DNA of 64,000 bases, taken from positions 3,672,095-3,736,094 of the forward strand of contig OZ245815.1 in assembly GCA_965228425.1 (NCBI GenBank), read 5' to 3'. Every line of letters begins with the position of its first letter. The stretch's first letter is position 1. A program made the position numbers and the translations under genes. The notes under the pieces were generated by a model. That model was not told the origin of the DNA and ran no database searches. It saw nothing but the letters and a program-made list of their open reading frames with translations. This stretch comes from Alphaproteobacteria bacterium (GTDB taxonomy: Bacteria > Pseudomonadota > Alphaproteobacteria > UBA8366). Shown here piece after piece: positions 24,857 to 35,396 of the stretch.

Positions 24857-25033
24857 TCAAATCCGCCATTGTCCCGAGTGTCGGCGTGATATGGGCAGTC
24901 CTGCCGCCCGCTGTCAAGGGAGGGAAATTTGCCGCCGGAAAGGCTAAGACCCGCCCTGTGTTAGAATTCCGGGCCGGATGGCGGTGATCCGCCCCAACCG
25001 TGGAAAATTAGCGAAAACGACGAGGAGAATCGG

Positions 25034-26137
25034 GTGATGGAAGGCGGTATCGTGTTACTGGGCTGCGGCGACGTGGGCCCCATTCGGGAACCGTTGGAAG
25101 ACTTCGGCGCCCTGGCCAAGCCGACACTGGCCGGCGGCGACATCCGGTTTGCCCAGTGCGAGCGTGTCTATTCCGAGCGCGGCAGCCTGCAGATCCACTC
25201 CGGCGGCGGGCACAGCCGTTGCGCGCCGCAGATGGCTTCGGTCTTCACGGATTGCGGATTCGATGTGCTGTCGGTGGCGAGCAACCATGCCATGGACTGG
25301 GGCGGAGACGCCCTGCTCGACACCATCGATCTGCTGCGCGACCAGGGTATCGCCGTGGTCGGCGGCGGCCGAAACCTGGCGGAAGCCCGGGAGCCGGCCA
25401 TCCTGGAACGCGGCGGCGTGACGGTGGCCTTCCTCGCCTATTGCTCGATCCTGCGCGAGGGCTATGCGGCCGGGCCCGACAAACCCGGCGTGGCGCCATT
25501 GCGCGCGCATACCTACTACGAGCCCTTCGACTATCAGGCGGGCGTGCCACCCCGGGTCGTGACCGTGCCCTACGCGGAAGACCTCGCTGCCATGGAAGCG
25601 GACATCGCCGCCGCCAAGAAACGAGCGCAGGTCGTCGTGGTCTCGCTGCACTGGGGCATTCACTTCATCCCCCGCATGATCGCCGACTATCAGCCGGTTG
25701 CCGCCAAGGCCGCCTTCGCCGCCGGCGCGGACCTGATCCTCGGCCATCATGCCCATGTACCGAAGGCGATCGGCGCCTATGACGGCAAGGTGTGTTTCTA
25801 CAGCCTCAGCAACTTCATCATGACGGGAACCGCAAAATCCCCTGAAGAGGCCAAAAAATTCGAGCGCGACTATCATGTCGAGCTGGACCCGGACTACCCG
25901 AACCTGGCTTACGGGTCCGACGCGAAACGCAGCCTGATCGCCAAGGCGGTGCTGGACGCGGACGGCGTCAAGCAGGTGTCCTTCCTGCCGGTCCTGATCG
26001 ACCCGCACCTGCGGCCGGAGGTCCTGCAGAACGGCGACCCGCGGTTCGACGACGCGGTGAATTTTATGGAATGGGTATCCGAGGACTTCCCCCACCGCTT
26101 CGCGGTCGAGGGTGACGAGGTCATCGTCGAGGCATAG
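25034..26137 (+). CDS. CapA-family (PGA_cap metallophosphatase-like) protein
   Basis: GDVGP...DIRFAQCE...SVASNHAMDWG...GIAVVGGGRNLAEA...VSLHWG...GHHAH. Confidence 0.8.
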   Translation: MMEGGIVLLGCGDVGPIREPLEDFGALAKPTLAGGDIRFAQCERVYSERGSLQIHSGGGHSRCAPQMASVFTDCGFDVLSVASNHAMDWGGDALLDTIDLLRDQGIAVVGGGRNLAEAREPAILERGGVTVAFLAYCSILREGYAAGPDKPGVAPLRAHTYYEPFDYQAGVPPRVVTVPYAEDLAAMEADIAAAKKRAQVVVVSLHWGIHFIPRMIADYQPVAAKAAFAAGADLILGHHAHVPKAIGAYDGKVCFYSLSNFIMTGTAKSPEEAKKFERDYHVELDPDYPNLAYGSDAKRSLIAKAVLDADGVKQVSFLPVLIDPHLRPEVLQNGDPRFDDAVNFMEWVSEDFPHRFAVEGDEVIVEA

Positions 26138-26146
26138 ACGGCGTCC

Positions 26147-27043
26147 CTATACCGGCACGTCGCCGCGCACCACGGTGCGGTTCAGGATGCGGACGTGCTT
26201 GTCCATCTCGAAATTGTCGACCGCGCGGTGCAGCAAACAGCGGTTGTCCCAGATCACCAGATCGCCGGGCCGCCAAGTGTGCCGATAGACGAAGCGGTCC
26301 TGGGTCGCGAAGGTCTGCAGTTCATCGATCAGCGCCTCGCCCTTCTCGGTTGGCCAGCCATCCACATGCGAACTGTGGTTGCCGAGATAGAGCACCTTGC
26401 GGCCGGTGCCGGGATGGGTCCGAACCAGCGGGTGATTGACCGGCGGCGCATCGCGTTTTTCCTGCTCGGTCGCGGGCCGGCTGCCCGATTTTTCCCGCGA
26501 TCGCTGCCAGCTATGCCATAGGCGGAGGGAAGCGAGGTCCCGCTTGCGTGACTCGGGTAGCGCGTCATACGCGGCTTCCATATCGGCAAACTCGGTGTCG
26601 CCGCCATCCGGCGGTAGCTGCACGGCATAGAGCAGCGTCGCGAGCGACGGCCGCGGCATATAGGACTTGTCCGTATGCCAGGCGTAATTGCCGATATTGC
26701 GCCCCCGCGCCGGGCGGTCGTTCTCGTCGAGATTGTTCACCGGATGGACTTCCGGCACACCGGCGCCGCGAAACTCGCGATTCACATGCGGCTCCAACTC
26801 ACCGAAGCGCTTGGTGAAAACAGCCTGTGCTTCCGGAGACAAATCCTGGTCCCGCAGCGCCAGCACCTTGTACCGATTTAATGCATCCAGGACGGCATCC
26901 CGGGTTGCGTCGCTCATTGGCTGGGCGGCGTCGAAACCGAATATCTCCGCGCCCATCGGCGGCGACAGCGGACGCGCCTCGAACGGCCAAGCCGCCGGCG
27001 TCCCTACCGAAACGGATTGTTTTTCTAGATTGGTGCTGGCCAT
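26147..27043 (-). CDS. TauD/TfdA-family Fe(II)/2-oxoglutarate dioxygenase
   Basis: GAEIFGFD, WHTD (H-x-D), GDTEFADM, HPLVRTHPGTGRK, WDNRCLLHRA. Confidence 0.88.
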   Translation of the reverse strand: MASTNLEKQSVSVGTPAAWPFEARPLSPPMGAEIFGFDAAQPMSDATRDAVLDALNRYKVLALRDQDLSPEAQAVFTKRFGELEPHVNREFRGAGVPEVHPVNNLDENDRPARGRNIGNYAWHTDKSYMPRPSLATLLYAVQLPPDGGDTEFADMEAAYDALPESRKRDLASLRLWHSWQRSREKSGSRPATEQEKRDAPPVNHPLVRTHPGTGRKVLYLGNHSSHVDGWPTEKGEALIDELQTFATQDRFVYRHTWRPGDLVIWDNRCLLHRAVDNFEMDKHVRILNRTVVRGDVPV

Positions 27044-27102
27044 TGGAATTGCACTCCTTCGGTGTCCGGACATTCTAGCAGAGCTGCCACATTCACGCCC
27101 AC

Positions 27103-27966
27103 TCACCCGCCGTATTTCCGGGCCAGCGTCTCATACTCGGCAAGGCCCAAAATCTCGTTCTGGCGGTCGAGCCCGTTCATCCGGTCGAGCAGCGGTTCGG
27201 TCGTGCCCTCGCGCTTCAGAACATCCAGGAACTCCTGCGCTTGCCGCGTCAGGAACCGCGCCAATCCGTTGGCGAAGAGCGCCACGCTGTAGCCGAGCTC
27301 CTGCAGGTCGGCGGCCGAGAGCAAGGGGCTGCGGCCACCCTCGATCATGTTGGCCAAGACCGGCACGTTCACCGCATTTGGGATCGCAGCGAATTCTTCG
27401 ACCGATTGCGGCGCTTCGACGAAAACCATATCCGCCCCCGCCTCCGCATAGGCGGCCACGCGGTCGAGCGCGGCGTCGAATCCGTCCACGGAACGGGCGT
27501 CGGTCCGCGCAATAATCAGGAAATCCGGATCATCGCGTGTATCGAGCGCCGCCTTCAGTTTACCGACCATCTCTTCGACCGTTACAAGCGTCTTGCCCGT
27601 GAAATGCCCGCACCGCTTCGGGATTTCCTGGTCCTCCAGTCGGATGGCGGCGACGCCCGCGCGCTCGAACTCCCGGACCGTTCTGATGACATTGAGTGCA
27701 TTGCCATAACCGGTATCCGCGTCGCAGATCACCGGCAGATCACATGCGTCCGCGACGCGACGGGCGCGCTCGGCCATCTCGGTCATCGTCACCAAACCAA
27801 GATCAGGCATTGCGAGCGTCGTATAGGTGACGCCGGCGCCGTTCATCTCGACGGCCTCGAATCCCGCCTGCGCCATCAATCGTGCCATCAGCGGGTCGTA
27901 GGTACCGGGCGCAAGGAGTATCTCGTCGTCCTCGATACGTCGGCGCAGCTTGGTTGTCTGTCGCAT
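27103..27966 (-). CDS. isocitrate lyase/PEP mutase superfamily enzyme (PrpB / oxaloacetate-decarboxylase-like, not PEP mutase)
   Basis: LLAPGTYDPLMARL, DADTGYGN, and IRLEDQEIPKRCGHFTGK. The KRCGH motif points to the lyase branch. Confidence 0.8.
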   Translation of the reverse strand: MRQTTKLRRRIEDDEILLAPGTYDPLMARLMAQAGFEAVEMNGAGVTYTTLAMPDLGLVTMTEMAERARRVADACDLPVICDADTGYGNALNVIRTVREFERAGVAAIRLEDQEIPKRCGHFTGKTLVTVEEMVGKLKAALDTRDDPDFLIIARTDARSVDGFDAALDRVAAYAEAGADMVFVEAPQSVEEFAAIPNAVNVPVLANMIEGGRSPLLSAADLQELGYSVALFANGLARFLTRQAQEFLDVLKREGTTEPLLDRMNGLDRQNEILGLAEYETLARKYGG

Positions 27967-28200
27967 TGTCCGCCTCCTGTCTGGCTGTTCCGTCAGCCTA
28001 ACAGGCCTGGCGAATTCGAACGAACCGGTCTCCCGGAAATACGCTCGATATGGCCTTCTGCGACAATCGGTTGGCCACGCCATAAGAGCGCCTCGGATAT
28101 CGTGCGCCCATATAATCCAAGTGAGTAATAACCCTTTGGAACAGCTACCTCTATTGGATAGATGACACACGGTGCGGGTCTATGCGAACGGTATCCCAAG

Positions 28201-30849
28201 ATGCATAGGATCGAGAGTGGCATAGACCGAGCATCCGACCGCTTACAGACGATTTATGAAGTGTTGCGGCATTGGGCCGAGCTCACACCGGCAGCACCCG
28301 CCTTTTTGGCCTTGGACCGGCCGCCAATCGACTACGGCGCCCTTAAACGAGCGGTCGATCAAATCGGGACCGAATTGGCCGCCAGCGGCGTCCGCCGGCG
28401 CGACCGAATCGCGATCGCCGAGGCCGGCGGTACGGATGTGGCCATCGCCGCCGTCGGCGTTTGGTCCCACGCGGCGGCGGTTCCGATAAACCCCAACCTC
28501 ACGCCCGGCGAAACCGCGCTGGCGCTGCAAGACTTGGGGGTAAAGGCACTCGCCGTCACCGATCCGGGGTCGTCGCCCGCCCGCAACATCGCGCAGCAAC
28601 TCGGACTGCCGATCCTAACGATCATTCGGGATTCGAAAGCGGATGCGTATCGGGTCGAGGTCGACGGCGGCCCGCTCGGACCACCGGGCCCTTGCGAACC
28701 AGCCCAAGCCGACGATCCCGTCGTTATTCTGGCTACCTCGGGAACGACGTCGCATAGCAAGATCGTCCCCCTGTTGCAGCGTCATCTCCATGCGCGGGGA
28801 GCGTTGAATTCGCGGTTCCTGGAACTGACGCCCGACGACCGGGCGTTGAACCTGATGCCGCTGTTCCACGGCGGCGGACTGAGCGCCGGGATCGCGACCT
28901 GCCTGTTCGCCGGCAGCAGCGTGTGCGCCCTGCCCAGCTTGGACGCCGACACGTTCTACCGCCATCTGGAGGCGCTCGAACCGACCTACGCCATGGGGGC
29001 GCCTGCGGTCTTCTCGTCGATCCTCGATCAAGCCGATCGCTTCCAGCCGGCCATCGCCAAAGCGCGTCCGCATCTGCGGATGATCCGGACCGGCGCCGGC
29101 AAACTCGACACCGATCTAGCGGACCGGCTTCAAGATACCTTCCGCGCACCCGTAATACAGGTTTACGGGTCGTCGGAATCCGGCTGGCTGGCTTGCGACC
29201 CCATGGCGGCGGCGCGGCGCAAACCGGGCAGCGTCGGACTGCCGCGGCCGAACGAAGTCGCCGTGTTCGCCGACGATGGCGAAACCGCCCCCGCCGGCAC
29301 CGTCGGCGAAGTTGGCGCCCGCGGCGAAGCCGTCTTCGAAGGCTATGAAAACGGCGGCCCGTCCGATTCCGCTGTTTTCGCGGATGGCTGGTACCGCACG
29401 GGGGACGCGGGCTATTTCGACGAAGACGGCTACCTCTTTCTCACCGGGCGCCTTAATGAGGTGATCAATCGGGGCGGCCAGAAGGTTGCACCGAATGAGG
29501 TAGACGAAGCCCTCCAATCGCACCCGGCGGTCCGTACCGCGACCGCCTTTCCCATCCCGCATGCCACCCTGGGCGAGGAGATCGCGGCGACCGTCGTCGC
29601 CACGTCCGGCGCATCCCCCGACGAACAAGCTCTGCTGCGGCATCTGCGTGAGCGCCTGGCGCCGTACAAGATTCCCCGTCGCATCGTGTTCGTCGACGAC
29701 ATTCCAAAGGGCGACACCGGCAAGATACAACGCCACAAACTGGCCGAAACGCTTGGGCTCTCGACCGCCGATCCGGATTCCAGCCGCCAGGACGCGGCGC
29801 AGGACCGGCCGGCGACACCGTTGGAAGAAACCCTAAGGGCGCTCTGGGCCAAGGCGCTCGATCGACCGGACGTGGGCCTGCATGACGATTTCTTCATGCT
29901 CGGCGGCGATTCCCTGCAGGCGGTTAACCTATTCCTCGATATCGAGCGGCATTTGGACCGCCGCCTGCCGCGGGCCATCCTATTCGACGCCGCAACCATC
30001 GCCGAAATGGCGGATCGAATCGAGGCCGAACTGCCATCGCGCTGCCTCGTGCCGATTCAGCCGAAGGGCGACCGGCCGCCATTTTTCTGCGTGCACGATC
30101 AAGACGGACATGTTCTGAATTTTCGGACGCTCGCCAAGCATCTCGGCGACGTGCAACCTTTCTACGGTTTGCAAGCGCGCGGGTTGGACGGCGACGAAAT
30201 TCCCTTCGCCGACGCGGATACGATGGCCGCGCACTACATTCAGGAGATTCGCCGCATTCAGCCGAACGGCCCCTTCCTGTTGGGGGGATATTCGTTCGGC
30301 GGCCGGATCGCCTATCTCATGGCCCAAAAGCTCCGCGCCGCCGGTGAAGACGTCGCGCTCCTCGCGCTGTTCGACACCTACTATCAGGGCGGCAGGAAAC
30401 GCGCGAGCATCGGGCAGTGGCTCCGGCTGCATGCGCGACGGCTCTCCCGACAATCCCCCCGGGAGATACCGGCGTATTTGGGGCGCCGCCTCATCTCGGC
30501 ATGGGAGGTCTTCGCCGTCGCGGTCCGCACGGCCGTGTTCACACAGACCTGGCGCTACTATGAGAGCAGGGGCAAGACCGTACCGAAGTTGCTTCGAAAC
30601 CCCGCCGGCGCGAACGACATCATTTCCAGCAACGTGACCCTCGCTCCCTATGACGGCGCCGCCGTGTTGTTCAAAGCCGAATTGCCGGCGCTGCTGGACC
30701 GGGAAGTCCACGATGGCTGGCGCAATATCGTCCGGGGCGGGTTGGAGACGCGCCCAATCCGCGGCCGGCATGCCGACGTGATGATCGAACCGGCGGTGTG
30801 CGAATTAGCCGCCGAGTTGAAGGACTGCATCGAGGCAAGACTCCGATAA
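28201..30849 (+). CDS. standalone NRPS-like tridomain enzyme: adenylation / carrier protein / thioesterase (A-T-TE)
   Basis: A-domain cores ILATSGTTSHSKIV, YGSSE, WYRTGDAGYFDEDGYLFLTGRLNEVINRGGQKV and PKGDTGKIQR. Carrier motif FFMLGGDSL (Ser codon 29911-29913). TE motif GGYSFGG (Ser codon 30292-30294) plus a late GRHADVM. The ORF opens at 28162. Confidence 0.85.
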   Translation: MHRIESGIDRASDRLQTIYEVLRHWAELTPAAPAFLALDRPPIDYGALKRAVDQIGTELAASGVRRRDRIAIAEAGGTDVAIAAVGVWSHAAAVPINPNLTPGETALALQDLGVKALAVTDPGSSPARNIAQQLGLPILTIIRDSKADAYRVEVDGGPLGPPGPCEPAQADDPVVILATSGTTSHSKIVPLLQRHLHARGALNSRFLELTPDDRALNLMPLFHGGGLSAGIATCLFAGSSVCALPSLDADTFYRHLEALEPTYAMGAPAVFSSILDQADRFQPAIAKARPHLRMIRTGAGKLDTDLADRLQDTFRAPVIQVYGSSESGWLACDPMAAARRKPGSVGLPRPNEVAVFADDGETAPAGTVGEVGARGEAVFEGYENGGPSDSAVFADGWYRTGDAGYFDEDGYLFLTGRLNEVINRGGQKVAPNEVDEALQSHPAVRTATAFPIPHATLGEEIAATVVATSGASPDEQALLRHLRERLAPYKIPRRIVFVDDIPKGDTGKIQRHKLAETLGLSTADPDSSRQDAAQDRPATPLEETLRALWAKALDRPDVGLHDDFFMLGGDSLQAVNLFLDIERHLDRRLPRAILFDAATIAEMADRIEAELPSRCLVPIQPKGDRPPFFCVHDQDGHVLNFRTLAKHLGDVQPFYGLQARGLDGDEIPFADADTMAAHYIQEIRRIQPNGPFLLGGYSFGGRIAYLMAQKLRAAGEDVALLALFDTYYQGGRKRASIGQWLRLHARRLSRQSPREIPAYLGRRLISAWEVFAVAVRTAVFTQTWRYYESRGKTVPKLLRNPAGANDIISSNVTLAPYDGAAVLFKAELPALLDREVHDGWRNIVRGGLETRPIRGRHADVMIEPAVCELAAELKDCIEARLR

Positions 30850-30879
30850 CCGTCCAGCCCGGACACTTATCCGCCCGCA

Positions 30880-30893
30880 TTGACCCAAATCAA
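30880..30893. promoter_or_regulatory. FixK-type box (TTGA-N6-TCAA) upstream of the cytochrome c gene
   Basis: TTGACCCAAATCCAA-type site reading TTGACCCAAATCAA, one mismatch to TTGAT-N4-ATCAA. Centred ~75 bp upstream of the GTG start. No convincing -10 at class-II distance. Confidence 0.4.
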
Positions 30894-30961
30894 CGCTGCA
30901 TCGCGGCGAAAATGCCCCCCTAGCAGGCGACAATCTTGACAGCAATCAGGAAGGGTCGAGC

Positions 30962-31282
30962 GTGCAACACTCCATACGGCTTCTGGCCAGCGGCCTGACC
31001 GCGGCTTTCCTCATCGCCGGACACGCCGCTATCGCCGCCGAAGGCGATTCGATGGCCGGCGAAGCGCTTGCGAAACAATGGTGTGCCGCGTGCCACGACA
31101 TCGGCCACGGCAAGACCGTCAAGGACGGAGCCCCGTCCTTCGTCGAAGTCGCCCGCCACCCCAAGTTTAGTCCGGACCGGCTAAAGGTGTGGCTGTCGGA
31201 TCCCCATCCGCCGATGCCGAAACTGGATCTGTCGCGGCGTTCCATCGACGATCTCATCAGATACATCGGCAGCCTCAAGTAG
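30962..31282 (+). CDS. small periplasmic class I c-type cytochrome
   Basis: Signal peptide, heme motif CAACH, and a distal PPMP Met ligand candidate. GTG start follows AGGAAGGG. Confidence 0.85.
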   Translation: MQHSIRLLASGLTAAFLIAGHAAIAAEGDSMAGEALAKQWCAACHDIGHGKTVKDGAPSFVEVARHPKFSPDRLKVWLSDPHPPMPKLDLSRRSIDDLIRYIGSLK

Positions 31283-31334
31283 CTGATCTTAATAAATTTT
31301 ATTGTGCGGGAACCGATCCGGCCGCGGCTAGGAG

Positions 31335-31348
31335 TTGATCTAGATCAA
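31335..31348. promoter_or_regulatory. perfect FNR/FixK box upstream of ppk2
   Basis: TTGATCTAGATCAA matches TTGAT-N4-ATCAA exactly, inside the 16-bp palindrome GTTGATCTAGATCAAC. The -10-like TAAGTT at 31371-31376 puts the box centre at about -41.5. Confidence 0.6.
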
Positions 31349-31414
31349 CGCCCTAATGGTATCTGTCGCCTAAGTTGTAGTGTTCAGTGGCTGCAACTTT
31401 GATCTGAGACGACA

Positions 31415-32455
31415 ATGAAAAAAATTTCTGGCTCTAGTGATGGAAGCGCCGTCGTAACCGAAAAAGCGCCGAAACCGGACATTCAGGCCAATGGCGCCGA
31501 TGAGGTTTCGAACGAACAGCAGCCGATGGAAGGCAAGGGAAATGGCGCTGCGGCCGGAGAAAAAGCCGGTACGCCCCGTCATATGCTCTCCGAATTGCGG
31601 CACGATCCGAACGCAATCCACCGGCTTTTCGAAACGGGCGAGTATCCCTACAAAACGAAGCTCAGCCGCCGGAGCTACGAAAAGCATAAGGCGGAATTGC
31701 AGGTCGAACTTCTGAAAGTCCAGGATTGGGTGAAAGTAACCGGGCAGAAGATCGTCGTCCTGTTCGAAGGCCGCGATGCCGCCGGCAAGGGCGGCACGAT
31801 CAAGCGGTTCATGGAACACCTGAACCCGCGCGGCGCACGGGTCGTTGCCCTGGATAAACCAACCGAGCGCGAACAGAGCCAATGGTTCTTCCAGCGCTAT
31901 ATTCATCACCTGCCGTCCGCCGGCGAAATCGTGATGTTCGACCGGTCCTGGTACAACCGGGCCGGGGTCGAGCGCGTCATGGGATTCTGTAATCCCACCG
32001 ACTATCTGGAATTCATGCGCCAGACACCGGAAGTGGAACGCATGCTCGTCCGCAGCGGCATTATCCTTTTCAAATACTGGTTCTCGGTCACGCAGGACGA
32101 ACAATCCCGGCGATTCAAGTCGCGAGAGTCGGAGCCGTTGAAGAGCTGGAAGCTGTCCCCGATCGATAAGCTGTCGCTCAACAAGTGGGACGACTACACC
32201 GAAGCGAAAGAGGCGATGTTCTTCTACACGGATACGGCGGACGCACCGTGGACGATCGTGAAATCCAACGACAAGAAACGGGCCCGGCTGAACTGCATGA
32301 AGCACTTCCTGCAGAACCTGCCCTATCCCGAGAAGGATCACCGCGTCATCGGGCAACCCGATCCGCTGATCGTCGGCTCAAGCATCCATGTCGTTCAAAG
32401 CAGCGAACATATCCTGGGAAAAAGCCTGCACCCCGACCATCGGCGCAGCAAATAA
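31415..32455 (+). CDS. ppk2: polyphosphate kinase 2
   Basis: LLKVQDWVKVTGQKIVVLFEGRDAAGKGGTIKR (Walker A), DRSWYNRAGVERVMGF, and a lid region. A ~65-aa low-complexity N-terminal extension is present. Confidence 0.92.
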   Translation: MKKISGSSDGSAVVTEKAPKPDIQANGADEVSNEQQPMEGKGNGAAAGEKAGTPRHMLSELRHDPNAIHRLFETGEYPYKTKLSRRSYEKHKAELQVELLKVQDWVKVTGQKIVVLFEGRDAAGKGGTIKRFMEHLNPRGARVVALDKPTEREQSQWFFQRYIHHLPSAGEIVMFDRSWYNRAGVERVMGFCNPTDYLEFMRQTPEVERMLVRSGIILFKYWFSVTQDEQSRRFKSRESEPLKSWKLSPIDKLSLNKWDDYTEAKEAMFFYTDTADAPWTIVKSNDKKRARLNCMKHFLQNLPYPEKDHRVIGQPDPLIVGSSIHVVQSSEHILGKSLHPDHRRSK

Positions 32456-32586
32456 CGCCGGGACCGGTGAGCCTCCATCCCGCCGGGATCTCGTGAAAAT
32501 TTGACGCGAAATCAACCATAATACAGCCCCTTGCCCGCCCCTGATGCCGCGCCTATGGTTGCGGCGGAACAGCAGGGACGACCGGC

Positions 32587-34260
32587 ATGCACGACCTGAT
32601 CATTCGGAGCGCGTCGTTTATCGATGGCCTCGGCGGGGCCCCGAAAACCGCCGATCTGGCGGTGACGGGCGGCCGTATCGCTGAAATCGGCACGGTCTCC
32701 GGTCCGGCGCACGAAACCGTCGATGCCGCGGGCCTTTCCCTTATGCCGGGCATCATCGACGTCCATACGCACTACGACGCACAGCTCACCTGGGATCCGC
32801 AATGCTCGCCCTCGCCGGCGCTCGGCGTCACCACCGTCGTCATCGGCAATTGCGGTTTCGGGATCACGCCGAATGCGCCGGATACGCGGGAAACTCTCAT
32901 CAAGAATCTGTCCGAGGTCGAGGGTATGTCGCTGACCGCCTTGCGGGCGGGTATCGATTGGCGTTTCGACGATTTCGGCGGGTATCTGGACCTCTTGGCG
33001 ACCCGCGGCGTGGTGCCCAACGTCGCCGCCTTCGCCTGCCATTCCAGCATCCGTGTCGCGGTGCTTGGCGACGATGCCTCGACACGCGCTGCTACCGACG
33101 CCGAAATCGATCAAATGGCGACGATCCTGCGGGATGCCCTCAACGCGGGCGCGATCGGTTTCGCCTCCTCCACTTTCGAGAACCACAACGGGTTCGGCGG
33201 CCTGCCGATGCCGTCGCGCCTTGCCGAAGAATCCGAATTCGAACGCCTGATCGACGAACTCGGATCCGCGGGCCAGGGCTTGTTCATGGTCACCGCCGGC
33301 GAGCGCACCACCATCGATACCCTGACCGGCTATTCCCGGCGCAGTGGCCGGCCCATGGTCTACGCCGCGCTGTTGCACAACAGCCAGGTGCCGGAACGCA
33401 CCCGGTCGGTCCTATCGGGGTGTCGGGCCGCTCAATTGGCCGACGTCCCGGTCTATGCGCAGGTGTCCTGTCAGCCGCTGAGCATGAATTTCTCGCTCGA
33501 CGCCGCCTACCCGCTCTACGGCGTCGACCCGTGGGGATCGCTGCCGATCGACGATCCAGCGGTACTGCGCACGGCCCTCGCCGATCCCAATTTCCGCGAC
33601 CAATTCCGGCGCAGTCTGACGCAACCGGTCGGCGGCCGGTTGTTCAACGGCGATTGGGATCGAGTCGAGGTTGCGGTCTGTGCGTCTCATCCGGATTACG
33701 AAGGCCAATCCATTCCGGCGCTGGCCGAAAAAGGAGGGGTCGATGCCGTCGATTTCTTCTTCGATCTCGCCTTATCCGAAGACCTGGCGACCGTGTTCAA
33801 CGCGAAACTGCTGAATGTGGACGAGGACGCGGTCGGCGATATCCTGCAGCATCCGGACAGCCTGATCAGCCTGTCGGACGCTGGGGCGCACCTGACCTTC
33901 TTTTGTGACGCGGGCTATGGCCTGCACCTGCTCGGCCATTGGGTGCGGGAGCGCGGTGACTTCGAGATCGGCGAAGCGGTCCGCCAGATCACCAGCCGGC
34001 CAGCTGAGATTTACGGCATCCGCGACCGCGGCGCGCTGACCGAGGGCGCGTGGGCCGACATGCTGCTATTCGATCCCGAGACCGTCGGCATCACCGGCAT
34101 CGAACGTTTGCACGACCTCCCCGCCGGTCAAAGCCGCCTCGTGCGGCAAGGGCTCGGCGTGAGGGGCGTATGGGTCAACGGCACGCTGGTGCACGACGGC
34201 ACCGACTATCGCGATCACACTCGCCCGCCGGGCCAGGTTCTCACCGCGTTCGACGCGTAG
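32587..34260 (+). CDS. N-acyl-D-amino-acid deacylase (D-aminoacylase) family amidohydrolase
   Basis: DLIIRSASFIDGLG...GRIAEIG...MPGIIDVHTHYD, with SDAGAH later in the sequence. Confidence 0.85.
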   Translation: MHDLIIRSASFIDGLGGAPKTADLAVTGGRIAEIGTVSGPAHETVDAAGLSLMPGIIDVHTHYDAQLTWDPQCSPSPALGVTTVVIGNCGFGITPNAPDTRETLIKNLSEVEGMSLTALRAGIDWRFDDFGGYLDLLATRGVVPNVAAFACHSSIRVAVLGDDASTRAATDAEIDQMATILRDALNAGAIGFASSTFENHNGFGGLPMPSRLAEESEFERLIDELGSAGQGLFMVTAGERTTIDTLTGYSRRSGRPMVYAALLHNSQVPERTRSVLSGCRAAQLADVPVYAQVSCQPLSMNFSLDAAYPLYGVDPWGSLPIDDPAVLRTALADPNFRDQFRRSLTQPVGGRLFNGDWDRVEVAVCASHPDYEGQSIPALAEKGGVDAVDFFFDLALSEDLATVFNAKLLNVDEDAVGDILQHPDSLISLSDAGAHLTFFCDAGYGLHLLGHWVRERGDFEIGEAVRQITSRPAEIYGIRDRGALTEGAWADMLLFDPETVGITGIERLHDLPAGQSRLVRQGLGVRGVWVNGTLVHDGTDYRDHTRPPGQVLTAFDA

Positions 34261-34287
34261 CGCGGTGCGGACGGTCGGACACAGGAA

Positions 34288-34986
34288 ATGCGCAAGGGCT
34301 TCTCTTTTTGGCGTCTCATTCGCCGGATCGTCATCCTCATCGTGTTACTGGTTTTGGTCCTGCCGGCCGGACTGACCCTGCTGTATCGCGAAGTGGCCCC
34401 GCCCTTCACGCCGCTGATGGTGATCCGGCTATTCGAAGGCGAAGGGATCAAGTCCGAGTGGGTGCCGTTGCGGCAGATATCGCCGCATCTGATCCGCTCG
34501 GTCATCGCCCTGGAAGACAGCCGCTTTTGCAGCCATGACGGCGTCGATTGGGTCGAAATGAGCGATGCGGTGAGCGACCACCTAAAGGGTGGGCGGCTTC
34601 GCGGCGCCAGCACGATCTCGATGCAGACCGCCAAGAACCTGTTCCTCTGGCCCGGCCGGACCTTCCTGCGCAAGGCGATCGAAGCGCCGCTGACCTTCAT
34701 GATCGAAGCCATCCTCGGTAAGCGCCGCATCCTTGAAATCTATCTGAACGTGGTGGAATGGGGGCCGGGCATCTACGGGATCGAAGCCGCGTCGCGCGCC
34801 TATTTCCGAAAGCCCGCCGCCGCCCTTACCGCGTGGCAGGCAGGGCTGCTGGCCGGTATCCTGCCCAACCCGCGGCGCTGGTCGCCCCGAAAACCAACCG
34901 ATTATATCCGCAACCGCGCGCGCACCGCGATGGCCCGCTCGAAGGCGGTCGCCCCCGCGCTCAAATGCCTTCGGAAAAGCGGATAG
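34288..34986 (+). CDS. mtgA: monofunctional biosynthetic peptidoglycan transglycosylase
   Basis: IALEDSRFCSHDGVDW, GASTISMQTAKNLFL, RKAIEAPLTFMIEAILGKRRILEIYLNVVEWG. Confidence 0.92.
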   Translation: MRKGFSFWRLIRRIVILIVLLVLVLPAGLTLLYREVAPPFTPLMVIRLFEGEGIKSEWVPLRQISPHLIRSVIALEDSRFCSHDGVDWVEMSDAVSDHLKGGRLRGASTISMQTAKNLFLWPGRTFLRKAIEAPLTFMIEAILGKRRILEIYLNVVEWGPGIYGIEAASRAYFRKPAAALTAWQAGLLAGILPNPRRWSPRKPTDYIRNRARTAMARSKAVAPALKCLRKSG

Positions 34987-34991
34987 GAAAT

Positions 34992-35396
34992 CTAAGCCGG
35001 CCGCGGGACCGCCGAGATAATCACGGTAACATGGGCCAGCGGGTATTCGTCCGTGATCGTCACGTCGATCTGCGCCGCCATGTCGGCGGGCACCAGCGTT
35101 TGCAGATGCGCCAGCGCGCCGCCGGTCAGTTCCATCGTCGGCTTACCCGACGGCAGGTTGACCACGCCCATGTCGCGCCAGAAGATGCCGCGCCGGAAGC
35201 CGGTGCCGAGCGCCTTGGAACATGCCTCTTTGGCGGCGAAGCGCTTGGCGTAGCTGTCGGCGCGCCGGGCGCGCTTGTCCGACTTCGCCCGTTCGATATC
35301 GGTGAAGCACCGCTCCTCGAACCGTCCCGGAAATCGTTCGAGCGTGCTCTCGATCCGCCGGATATCCACCAGGTCGCTGCCGACGCCGATGATCAT
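34992..35396 (-). CDS. acpS: holo-[acyl-carrier-protein] synthase
   Basis: [30 protein letters not shown], and SITDE-like ITDEYPLA. Confidence 0.92.

Follow-up and report, generated by a model that had tools for sequence, protein, structure and literature searches.

A probable self-contained acid-activating enzyme of apparent oxalyl-CoA synthetase descent, joined to its own carrier and thioesterase, in an alphaproteobacterium

The A-T-TE gene and its domain architecture

The locus described here lies in a stretch of 64,000 nucleotides (the window, to whose positions the coordinates refer unless a contig handle precedes them) of contig OZ245815.1 of an alphaproteobacterium of the lineage UBA8366 (assembly GCA_965228425.1), with a genome of 5.34 Mb. 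The gene in question encodes a single polypeptide in which an adenylation (A) domain is followed by a carrier, or thiolation (T), domain and a type-I thioesterase (TE), and it is called the A-T-TE gene hereafter. The gene and the motifs considered to be important for its function are as follows.

28162..30849, + strand: A-T-TE gene, 895 amino acids, described by Pfam domains, matches in the PDB, a structural model of the T-TE part and the ratio of nonsynonymous to synonymous substitution rates (dN/dS)
28735..28761, + strand: P-loop TSGTTSHSK, residues 192-200, aligned to TSGTTSRPK of LsOCS and AtAAE3
29902..29916, + strand: carrier motif GGDSL, residues 581-585, with Ser584 as the predicted phosphopantetheine attachment site; G581-L585 are invariant in 31 family members
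30286..30300, + strand: TE nucleophile motif GYSFG, residues 709-713, with Ser711, aligned to the TE domains of 7crn and AB3403
30373-30375, + strand: Asp738 (in LFDTY) of the predicted TE triad, from the same alignment
30769-30771, + strand: His870 of the predicted TE triad, from the same alignment

The Pfam domains of the protein are AMP-binding (residues 36-395), AMP-binding_C (446-521), PP-binding (556-620) and Thioesterase (640-744). An alternative in-frame start, the second ATG at 28201, gives a protein of 882 residues. Comparison with two congeners over the whole length yielded a dN/dS of about 0.14, which places the gene under purifying selection; the A-T-TE gene is real, intact and under selection. 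A whole-genome profile search for the condensation (C) domain (PF00668) found none in the A-T-TE protein and none anywhere in the genome. This bears out an earlier account of the locus made from the letters alone (the sequence-only reading), in which the protein had been described as a stand-alone A-T-TE enzyme devoid of a C domain. The list of open reading frames (ORFs), the translations and the Pfam and NCBIfam scans likewise confirm the presence and orientation of the four genes named in that account, the motifs quoted from them, and the identities given to the three neighbours, namely CapA, a TauD/TfdA-family protein and a lyase of the isocitrate lyase (ICL)/PrpB type.

Lineage of the adenylation domain

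The top 25 NCBIfam matches of the A-T-TE protein are all acyl-CoA ligases, with FadD7 first at 314 bits, and every one of them stays under its cut-off. When the A domain alone was compared with the PDB, the oxalyl-CoA synthetases (OCSs) 6qjz (260 bits), 5ie0 (255 bits) and 8aff (228 bits) ranked highest, followed by MatB (181 bits) and FadD13 (165 bits). The best 60 PDB matches of the A domain, all of at least 107 bits, are acyl- or aryl-CoA or AMP ligases and luciferases, and an amino-acid A domain of a nonribosomal peptide synthetase (NRPS) is absent among them. In a tree built with IQ-TREE (PMSF), the alphaproteobacterial A-T-TE A domains form one clade with a support of 99/99, whose sister group comprises stand-alone OCS-like ligases of ∼520 aa and the A-T-TE proteins of Bryobacterales, Thermoleophilia and Anaerolineales. 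These comparisons assign the A domain to the acyl-CoA synthetase type, descended from OCSs, and not to the NRPS type.

The P-loop TSGTTSHSK, which the sequence-only reading had taken for a degenerate A3 core, is the ordinary form of core A3 in the OCS clade, as evident from its alignment to the OCS motif; T192-T196 and K200 are invariant across the 31 members of the family alignment. Among solved structures, the OCSs AAE3, LsOCS and Pcs60 (EC 6.2.1.8; PDB 5IE0-5IE3, 6QJZ and 8AFF) come closest to the A domain, which they match over its full length at 228-260 bits, and they share with it the P-loop type TSGTTS-x-x-K, the hinge and the A10 Lys. However, OCSs are stand-alone enzymes of ∼515 aa that transfer the acyl group to CoA, whereas the protein described here has 895 aa and carries a fused carrier and thioesterase instead of using CoA.

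Substrate pocket

The oxalate pocket of AtAAE3 consists of Val215-His216, Cys288-Ser289, Ala313-Met314, His319 and Lys500, with Ser289 and His319 being specific to OCSs (PMC8905533). HMMER alignment to AtAAE3 gives Gly237-Gly238 as the equivalent of Val-His, Gly311-Ala312 of Cys-Ser, Gly336-Ser337 of Ala-Met and Trp342 of His. Unlike in the OCSs, both oxalate-specific residues are replaced and the wall of the pocket has turned to Gly/Ser. The replacements, including Ala312 and Trp342, are conserved within the orthologue group of the family alignment. Oxalate is probably not the substrate of the A-T-TE enzyme, because the Ser and the His, now Ala312 and Trp342, are both replaced, and the change to Gly and Ser suggests a roomier pocket.

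The stand-alone 520-aa ligases of the sister families, which are 40-42% identical, retain I-H, S-S, G-M and His at these positions and are probably true OCSs. The four A-T-TE copies of the genome diverge at exactly the same pocket positions, residue 342 being W, R, S or L, and Ser584 and the TE triad are conserved among these paralogues whose pockets differ. Such variation among the paralogues fits a diversification of substrates.

Carrier, thioesterase and phosphopantetheinyl transferase

Residues 549-895 match the peptidyl carrier proteins (PCPs) of NRPSs and the type-I TEs in the PDB (7crn, 89 bits; AB3403, 88 bits; EntF, 81-84 bits), and in sequence matches to the PDB the carrier resembles the PCPs of PvdL and TycC. 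An AlphaFold model of residues 546-895 was obtained with a mean pLDDT of 86 and a pTM of 0.81. Foldseek matched this model to the PCP-TE di-domains of AB3403, EntF, SulM and SrfA-C and to the TEs of NocB and Pks13, with E values of 1e-13 to 1e-21, those of the AB3403, EntF and SulM di-domains being 1e-15 to 1e-21, a fold match that points to a canonical PCP and type-I TE and does not discriminate between hydrolysis, transfer and cyclisation. Within the family the triad Ser is conserved in 25 of 31 members (five distant ones have Cys), the Asp in 29 of 31 and the His in 28 of 31. The carrier, by its Ser584, and the type-I TE both look active and NRPS-like on sequence and model, in agreement with what the sequence-only reading had said of their motifs. 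That reading had been prepared to give way if the A domain clustered with acyl-CoA ligases and the carrier or TE were inactive; the clustering was indeed found, and both of the other domains look active.

The following gene bears on the modification of the carrier.

34992..35396, - strand: acpS, 4 kb downstream of the A-T-TE gene, in the ancestral pdxJ-acpS position

The sole match to PF01648 in the genome is acpS (G000:3707200-3707481, equal to 35106-35387 of the window). No match was found in the genome to the N domain of Sfp-type phosphopantetheinyl transferases (PF22624), the model for which is a weak detector, positive in only 2 of 14 control genomes. The genome thus holds four NRPS-type carrier domains, those of the A-T-TE paralogues, and six discrete acyl carrier proteins, with AcpS as the sole detectable phosphopantetheinyl transferase. 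The coexistence of four NRPS-type carriers with AcpS alone is judged to be worth an experiment.

Presence and absence of the neighbouring genes in relatives

The sequence-only reading had joined the A-T-TE gene to the following three neighbours in a mini-cluster.

25034..26137, + strand: CapA/PGA_cap-family (metallophosphatase-like) gene (Pfam PF09587, 185 bits)
26147..27106, - strand: TauD/TfdA-family Fe(II)/2-oxoglutarate dioxygenase gene (Pfam PF02668, 242 bits)
27103..27966, - strand: gene of a C-C lyase of the PrpB/ICL superfamily, 287 aa, with the motif EDQEIPKRCGH (Pfam PEP_mutase, 157 bits)

The A-T-TE gene is divergent from the lyase-TauD pair, and CapA converges on TauD with a gap of 9 bp. 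These genes belong to an island that interrupts an alphaproteobacterial housekeeping run, with recO-era-rnc-lepB on one side and mtgA-acpS-pdxJ-spoT on the other. In other genera of the family lepB directly adjoins acpS (G016, G005, G009 and G011), or mtgA alone lies between them (G018 and G013), and the seven-gene island is therefore specific to the genus.

The comparison of close relatives covered five genomes from the genus together with the metagenome contigs L162 and L164. The full island set is present in the genome under study (G000) and in G004, and G002 has the same set minus PPK2. The order in G001 is PPK2-cytc, 245 bp of unrelated DNA and lyase-TauD-CapA, the A-T-TE gene being missing and the best A-T-TE protein elsewhere in that genome being just 48% identical. 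In L162, a contig of 2.26 Mb, the order is lepB-CapA-TauD, 85 bp of spacer and A-T-TE-cytc-PPK2, the lyase being missing. In G003, lepB is followed by ∼415 bp of unrelated DNA and the A-T-TE gene, with cytc-PPK2-amidohydrolase on the next contig; none of CapA, TauD and the lyase is present. On the short contig L164, the lyase is the one gene visible next to the beginning of the A-T-TE gene.

The proposed four-gene cluster was not upheld by this comparison, as every component (the A-T-TE gene, the lyase, or the block of CapA, TauD and lyase) is absent from one relative or another that retains the rest. Co-occurrence of the four genes in other genomes, which the sequence-only reading had proposed as a check, gave the same answer: the four genes are found together in this genus only, in three of its five genomes, and both the paralogues and the out-of-genus homologues of the lyase lack these partners. 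That reading had counted a lack of co-occurrence elsewhere as refuting it, which is in substance what was observed. Beyond the genus, neither TauD nor A-T-TE adjoins the closest homologues of the lyase (64-67% identity), and no TauD, PrpB-like or CapA gene lies within 8 kb of the other three A-T-TE copies of the genome. Since the A-T-TE gene has been gained or lost among close relatives independently of the lyase, TauD and CapA, it encodes a single-gene enzyme and is not part of a four-gene biosynthetic cluster. The four genes are not a conserved unit, and the neighbours are co-residents rather than obligate partners. Genome-mining tools would flag the gene as "NRPS-like", and a reader might easily see a cluster in its surroundings; in the relatives, the natural series of presence and absence rules the neighbours out as partners.

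Paralogues and the wider A-T-TE family

Four A-T-TE genes occur in the genome, the one described here and copies at 51, 46 and 37% identity, and their number in congeners is three to five. The four Pfam domains recur together in more than 100 database homologues, most of which come from Alphaproteobacteria and metagenomes and all of which bear generic or KEGG-derived names only. The source labels of family members are "AMP-binding protein", "non-ribosomal peptide synthetase" and "oxalate--CoA ligase", the last being given by JGI to several homologues. The ESM Atlas holds just generic AMP-binding, PP-binding and thioesterase clusters, and a search of genome contigs with a profile of the family alignment returned mostly distant relatives (at most 42% identity) and stand-alone ligases. 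A literature search for characterised bacterial A-T-TE enzymes of the ANL type turned up only work on fungal or Ralstonia NRPS-like enzymes and none on this family. An acyl-CoA-synthetase-type domain is combined with the release machinery of NRPSs in this large family of enzymes, which is visible in databases and uncharacterised. Knowledge of substrate and product would correct many annotations, and might reveal a new bacterial way of processing small organic acids.

The neighbours of the other three A-T-TE copies in the genome are TetR, D-2-hydroxyacid dehydrogenase, UbiD, ThiL-like and LysR genes, and those in congeners are DAO, IalB, GNAT, SDR and enolase-superfamily genes. Clustering of the neighbours of 20 A-T-TE loci revealed no strongly recurrent partner; SDR occurred in 5 loci, 2-hydroxyacid dehydrogenase in 4, LysR in 4 and TauD in 3, all of them abundant families.

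Some further arrangements were observed in the family. At L045:8425-13984 (G018), a tandem pair of A-T-TE paralogues occupies one strand with 50 bp between them; a methyltransferase gene and an enolase-superfamily gene form the flanks, and a third paralogue lies ∼100 kb off on the same contig. An ORF of 138 aa with no Pfam match (L039:8367-8783; equivalents in L043, L047 and L048) precedes the paralogue with 51% identity by ∼130 bp on the same strand, and a convergent TetR gene lies downstream of that paralogue. As the arrangement of the 138-aa ORF is retained in four congeners, the ORF possibly encodes a small partner protein of this paralogue. The distant A-T-TE homologues L082, L085 and L117 (Bryobacterales, Thermoleophilia and Anaerolineales) have an OCS-like pocket (I-H, S-S, G-M), but Gln in place of the oxalate-binding His, and their TE nucleophile is Cys, not Ser.

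Proposed mechanism and alternative explanations

It is considered rather probable that 28162-30849 encodes a self-contained, single-module, carboxylic-acid-activating enzyme, an accessory single gene with a remodelled non-oxalate pocket whose neighbours are not obligate partners. The A domain, derived from OCSs and having a remodelled and probably larger pocket, would adenylate a small carboxylic acid other than oxalate; its class is given by the comparisons above, and the chemistry is predicted from that class. The acid would then be passed to the phosphopantetheine arm on Ser584 of the enzyme's own NRPS-type carrier, and the type-I TE (Ser711/Asp738/His870) may accept and subsequently release the acyl group. 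Because plain hydrolysis of an unmodified acid would be futile, release would most likely occur to a nucleophile other than water, or after modification of the tethered acid in trans. In the starter module of PvdL and in the carboxylic acid reductases (A-T-R), an acyl-CoA-ligase-type adenylation domain similarly loads its own carrier; in these enzymes the next acceptor of the acyl group is a C domain or a reductase, whereas a terminal type-I TE directly follows the carrier here.

Several points weigh against this interpretation. The release chemistry is pure inference. AcpS-type enzymes often do not serve NRPS-type carriers, and the only phosphopantetheinyl transferase detected is of the AcpS type, which leaves the holo form of the carrier in doubt. 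In four of the seven related loci (three genomes and contig L164), a common divergent spacer separates the lyase from the A-T-TE gene. Furthermore, of eight independent A-T-TE loci, three (the present one, L046 and L050) have a TauD-family gene at a distance of at most 3 kb, as compared to ∼0.8 of eight expected by chance in what was a post hoc test. In two of them the order is operon-like on the same strand, namely TauD-GNAT-A-T-TE (L046:9295-13677, G017) and A-T-TE-2-hydroxyacid dehydrogenase-SDR-TauD (L050:8744-14798, G002); in the L046 and L050 runs, other family members may have true multi-gene units around them. The TauD proteins near the three loci are mutually non-orthologous (31-38% identity), and the adjacency is a weak hint of some partnership with TauD-type enzymes.

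The alternative that survives best, an unlikely one, takes up this hint: the A-T-TE enzyme would load an acid, the adjacent TauD protein would hydroxylate the tethered acyl group in trans, the TE would hydrolyse the product, and the PrpB-like lyase would then cleave the acid or, at an earlier step, supply it. The adjacency in three of eight loci, two of them in same-strand order, and the position of TauD directly divergent from the A-T-TE gene in L162 are in favour of it. β-Hydroxylases of the TauD/TfdA family, SyrP and PtcA, are known to act on carrier-bound Asp (PMC7100376), and a sequence of tethering, hydroxylation and release by a thioesterase is known for NikP1/NikQ/NikP2 (PMC4147253). 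The NikP1/NikQ/NikP2 and SyrP (Asp-S-PCP) systems share with such a scheme the logic of loading on a carrier, modifying in trans and releasing by a thioesterase, with TauD/TfdA enzymes as known tailoring partners; they use, however, NRPS-type amino-acid A domains. The partnership with the local TauD is, moreover, unsupported by the pattern of presence and absence, as G003 has the A-T-TE gene and no TauD, and G001 has TauD and no A-T-TE gene. Each genome has about 80 TauD paralogues, so that chance alone would place one next to ∼10% of loci, the three TauD neighbours are not orthologues of each other, and the solved relatives nearest to the local TauD are catabolic enzymes of free substrates.

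It is improbable to a clearly greater degree that the protein is a genuine oxalate-activating enzyme which loads oxalate onto its own carrier. Such a role would agree with the OCSs as best PDB matches, with a P-loop of their type, with the "oxalate--CoA ligase" label of several homologues at JGI and with the OCS-like pocket retained by distant A-T-TE relatives. It is opposed by the replacement of both OCS-specific residues, by four more pocket positions that are now Gly or Ser, and by the retention of the full signature in the stand-alone ligases of the sister families.

Slightly less probable still is the scheme of the sequence-only reading, modelled on TdiA, atromentin synthetase and RalA, in which a 2-oxo acid supplied by the lyase is activated and the TE dimerises two units to a quinone or furanone. 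2-Oxo acids, pyruvate among them, are products of PrpB-family lyases, the carrier and TE are intact, and none of the present tests speaks against self-condensation catalysed by the TE. The NRPS-like A-T-TE enzymes (fungal TdiA, atromentin and polyporic-acid synthetases, and Ralstonia RalA) are also alike in domain order, in having no C domain, in the NRPS-type carrier and type-I TE, and in acting as a single protein. The A domains of those enzymes are of the NRPS type and take aromatic 2-oxo acids (PMC9047271), whereas the A domain here falls in the acyl-CoA ligase branch by NCBIfam, PDB and tree, comparisons that included no TdiA or RalA sequence, and the analogy fails at this point. Unlike the TdiA/RalA type, the present enzyme has no aminotransferase partner and no conserved cluster. 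No aminotransferase or source of aryl-pyruvate is linked to the gene; the A-T-TE gene is kept where the lyase is missing (L162 and G003), and the lyase where the A-T-TE gene is missing (G001). The protein appears to follow the NRPS-like A-T-TE enzymes in outline, but it departs from them in its A domain, which is not of their kind, and from the OCSs in its substrate residues.

Equally remote is the chance that the carrier is never modified in a host having AcpS only, the protein being merely an acyl-adenylate or CoA ligase or functionally idle, since the single PF01648 transferase (acpS) and the lack of a detectable Sfp-type N domain and of a condensation domain in the genome are to be set against Ser584 and the TE triad, conserved across the four paralogues of the genome and across the family, and against the dN/dS over the whole length, which indicates selection on all three domains.

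Beyond the self-contained enzyme considered probable here, a broader view is offered tentatively. The OCS-derived A-T-TE proteins may form an unrecognised family of "activate, tether, release" enzymes that has radiated in soil Alphaproteobacteria, with three to five copies per genome and different pockets. Each copy would handle a different small acid, possibly tailored in trans by TauD-type or other enzymes, or condensed or transferred by the TE, and all would be served by AcpS alone.

The divergent spacer

27967..28161, no strand: divergent spacer between the lyase and A-T-TE genes, of which the last ∼20 bp alone travel with the A-T-TE gene in relatives
28150..28162, no strand: dyad TCTATTGGATAGA / TCTATtggATAGA, overlapping the first ATG

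The spacer measures 195 bp to the first ATG and 234 bp to the second, so that the 234-bp divergent region of the sequence-only reading holds for the second start and not for the first. In G003 and L162, nucleotide homology picks up again only ∼20 bp ahead of the first ATG (28162), from 28140 in the comparison with G003 and from 28146 in that with L162; in these relatives the A-T-TE gene is not accompanied by the upstream "shared promoter". The dyad reported earlier is present, one base off the coordinates given then, and is neither above chance nor conserved. The 64-kb window contains 99 dyads with exactly this geometry, and it is at the level of chance because 0.3 are expected per 195 bp. One of its arms is mutated in G002 in an alignment of three congeners, and it is not retained in G003, where the sequence is TCTCTTGTGCAGA.

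A promoter scan of 27900-31000 found no sigma-70-like promoter, and terminator-like sites in the same interval are at chance level. A sigma-54-like site, TGGAAC...TACC, in the spacer was rejected, as its GG is not conserved in G002 or G004.

Products of the neighbouring genes and other observations

The lyase is placed by sequence in the ICL/PEP-mutase superfamily. Its reading frame is open to 28170, and the ATG at 27966 is preceded by GGAGG. It possesses the KRCGH loop and scores 320.8 against the PrpB equivalog TIGR02317 (cut-off 354.4) and 275 against NF008455 (cut-off 353), with matches of ∼210-220 bits to the methylisocitrate lyases of the PDB. The probable start of the TauD-family protein is Met22 at 27043. 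It scores 182 against the taurine dioxygenase model NF007104, under the cut-off of 313, and its assignment is to the Pfam family PF02668 only. The nearest structures are TfdA-type 2,4-D dioxygenases (178 and 161 bits), and its nearest solved relatives (TfdA, TauD and RdpA) act in catabolism on free substrates. The CapA protein scores 89 against the MslH model, the cut-off of which is 700.

The TauD/TfdA family gave 81 tblastn matches in the genome, 79 of them spanning at least 200 aa (∼80 paralogues), and the PrpB-like lyase is one of 12 paralogues. With so many genes of both families, the adjacency of the A-T-TE gene to one of each is unremarkable. Six relatives of the island's amidohydrolase were found in the genome.

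Within the genus, single genes have been gained and lost with particular frequency at the junction between lepB and mtgA-acpS (24857-34991 of the window; L036, L037, L038, L162, L250 and L251). In the G018 draft, pdxJ matches as three pieces in different frames (L242:12669-13399), owing to either a frameshifted gene or an assembly error. In L162, ∼2 kb of extra DNA lies between PPK2 and the amidohydrolase.

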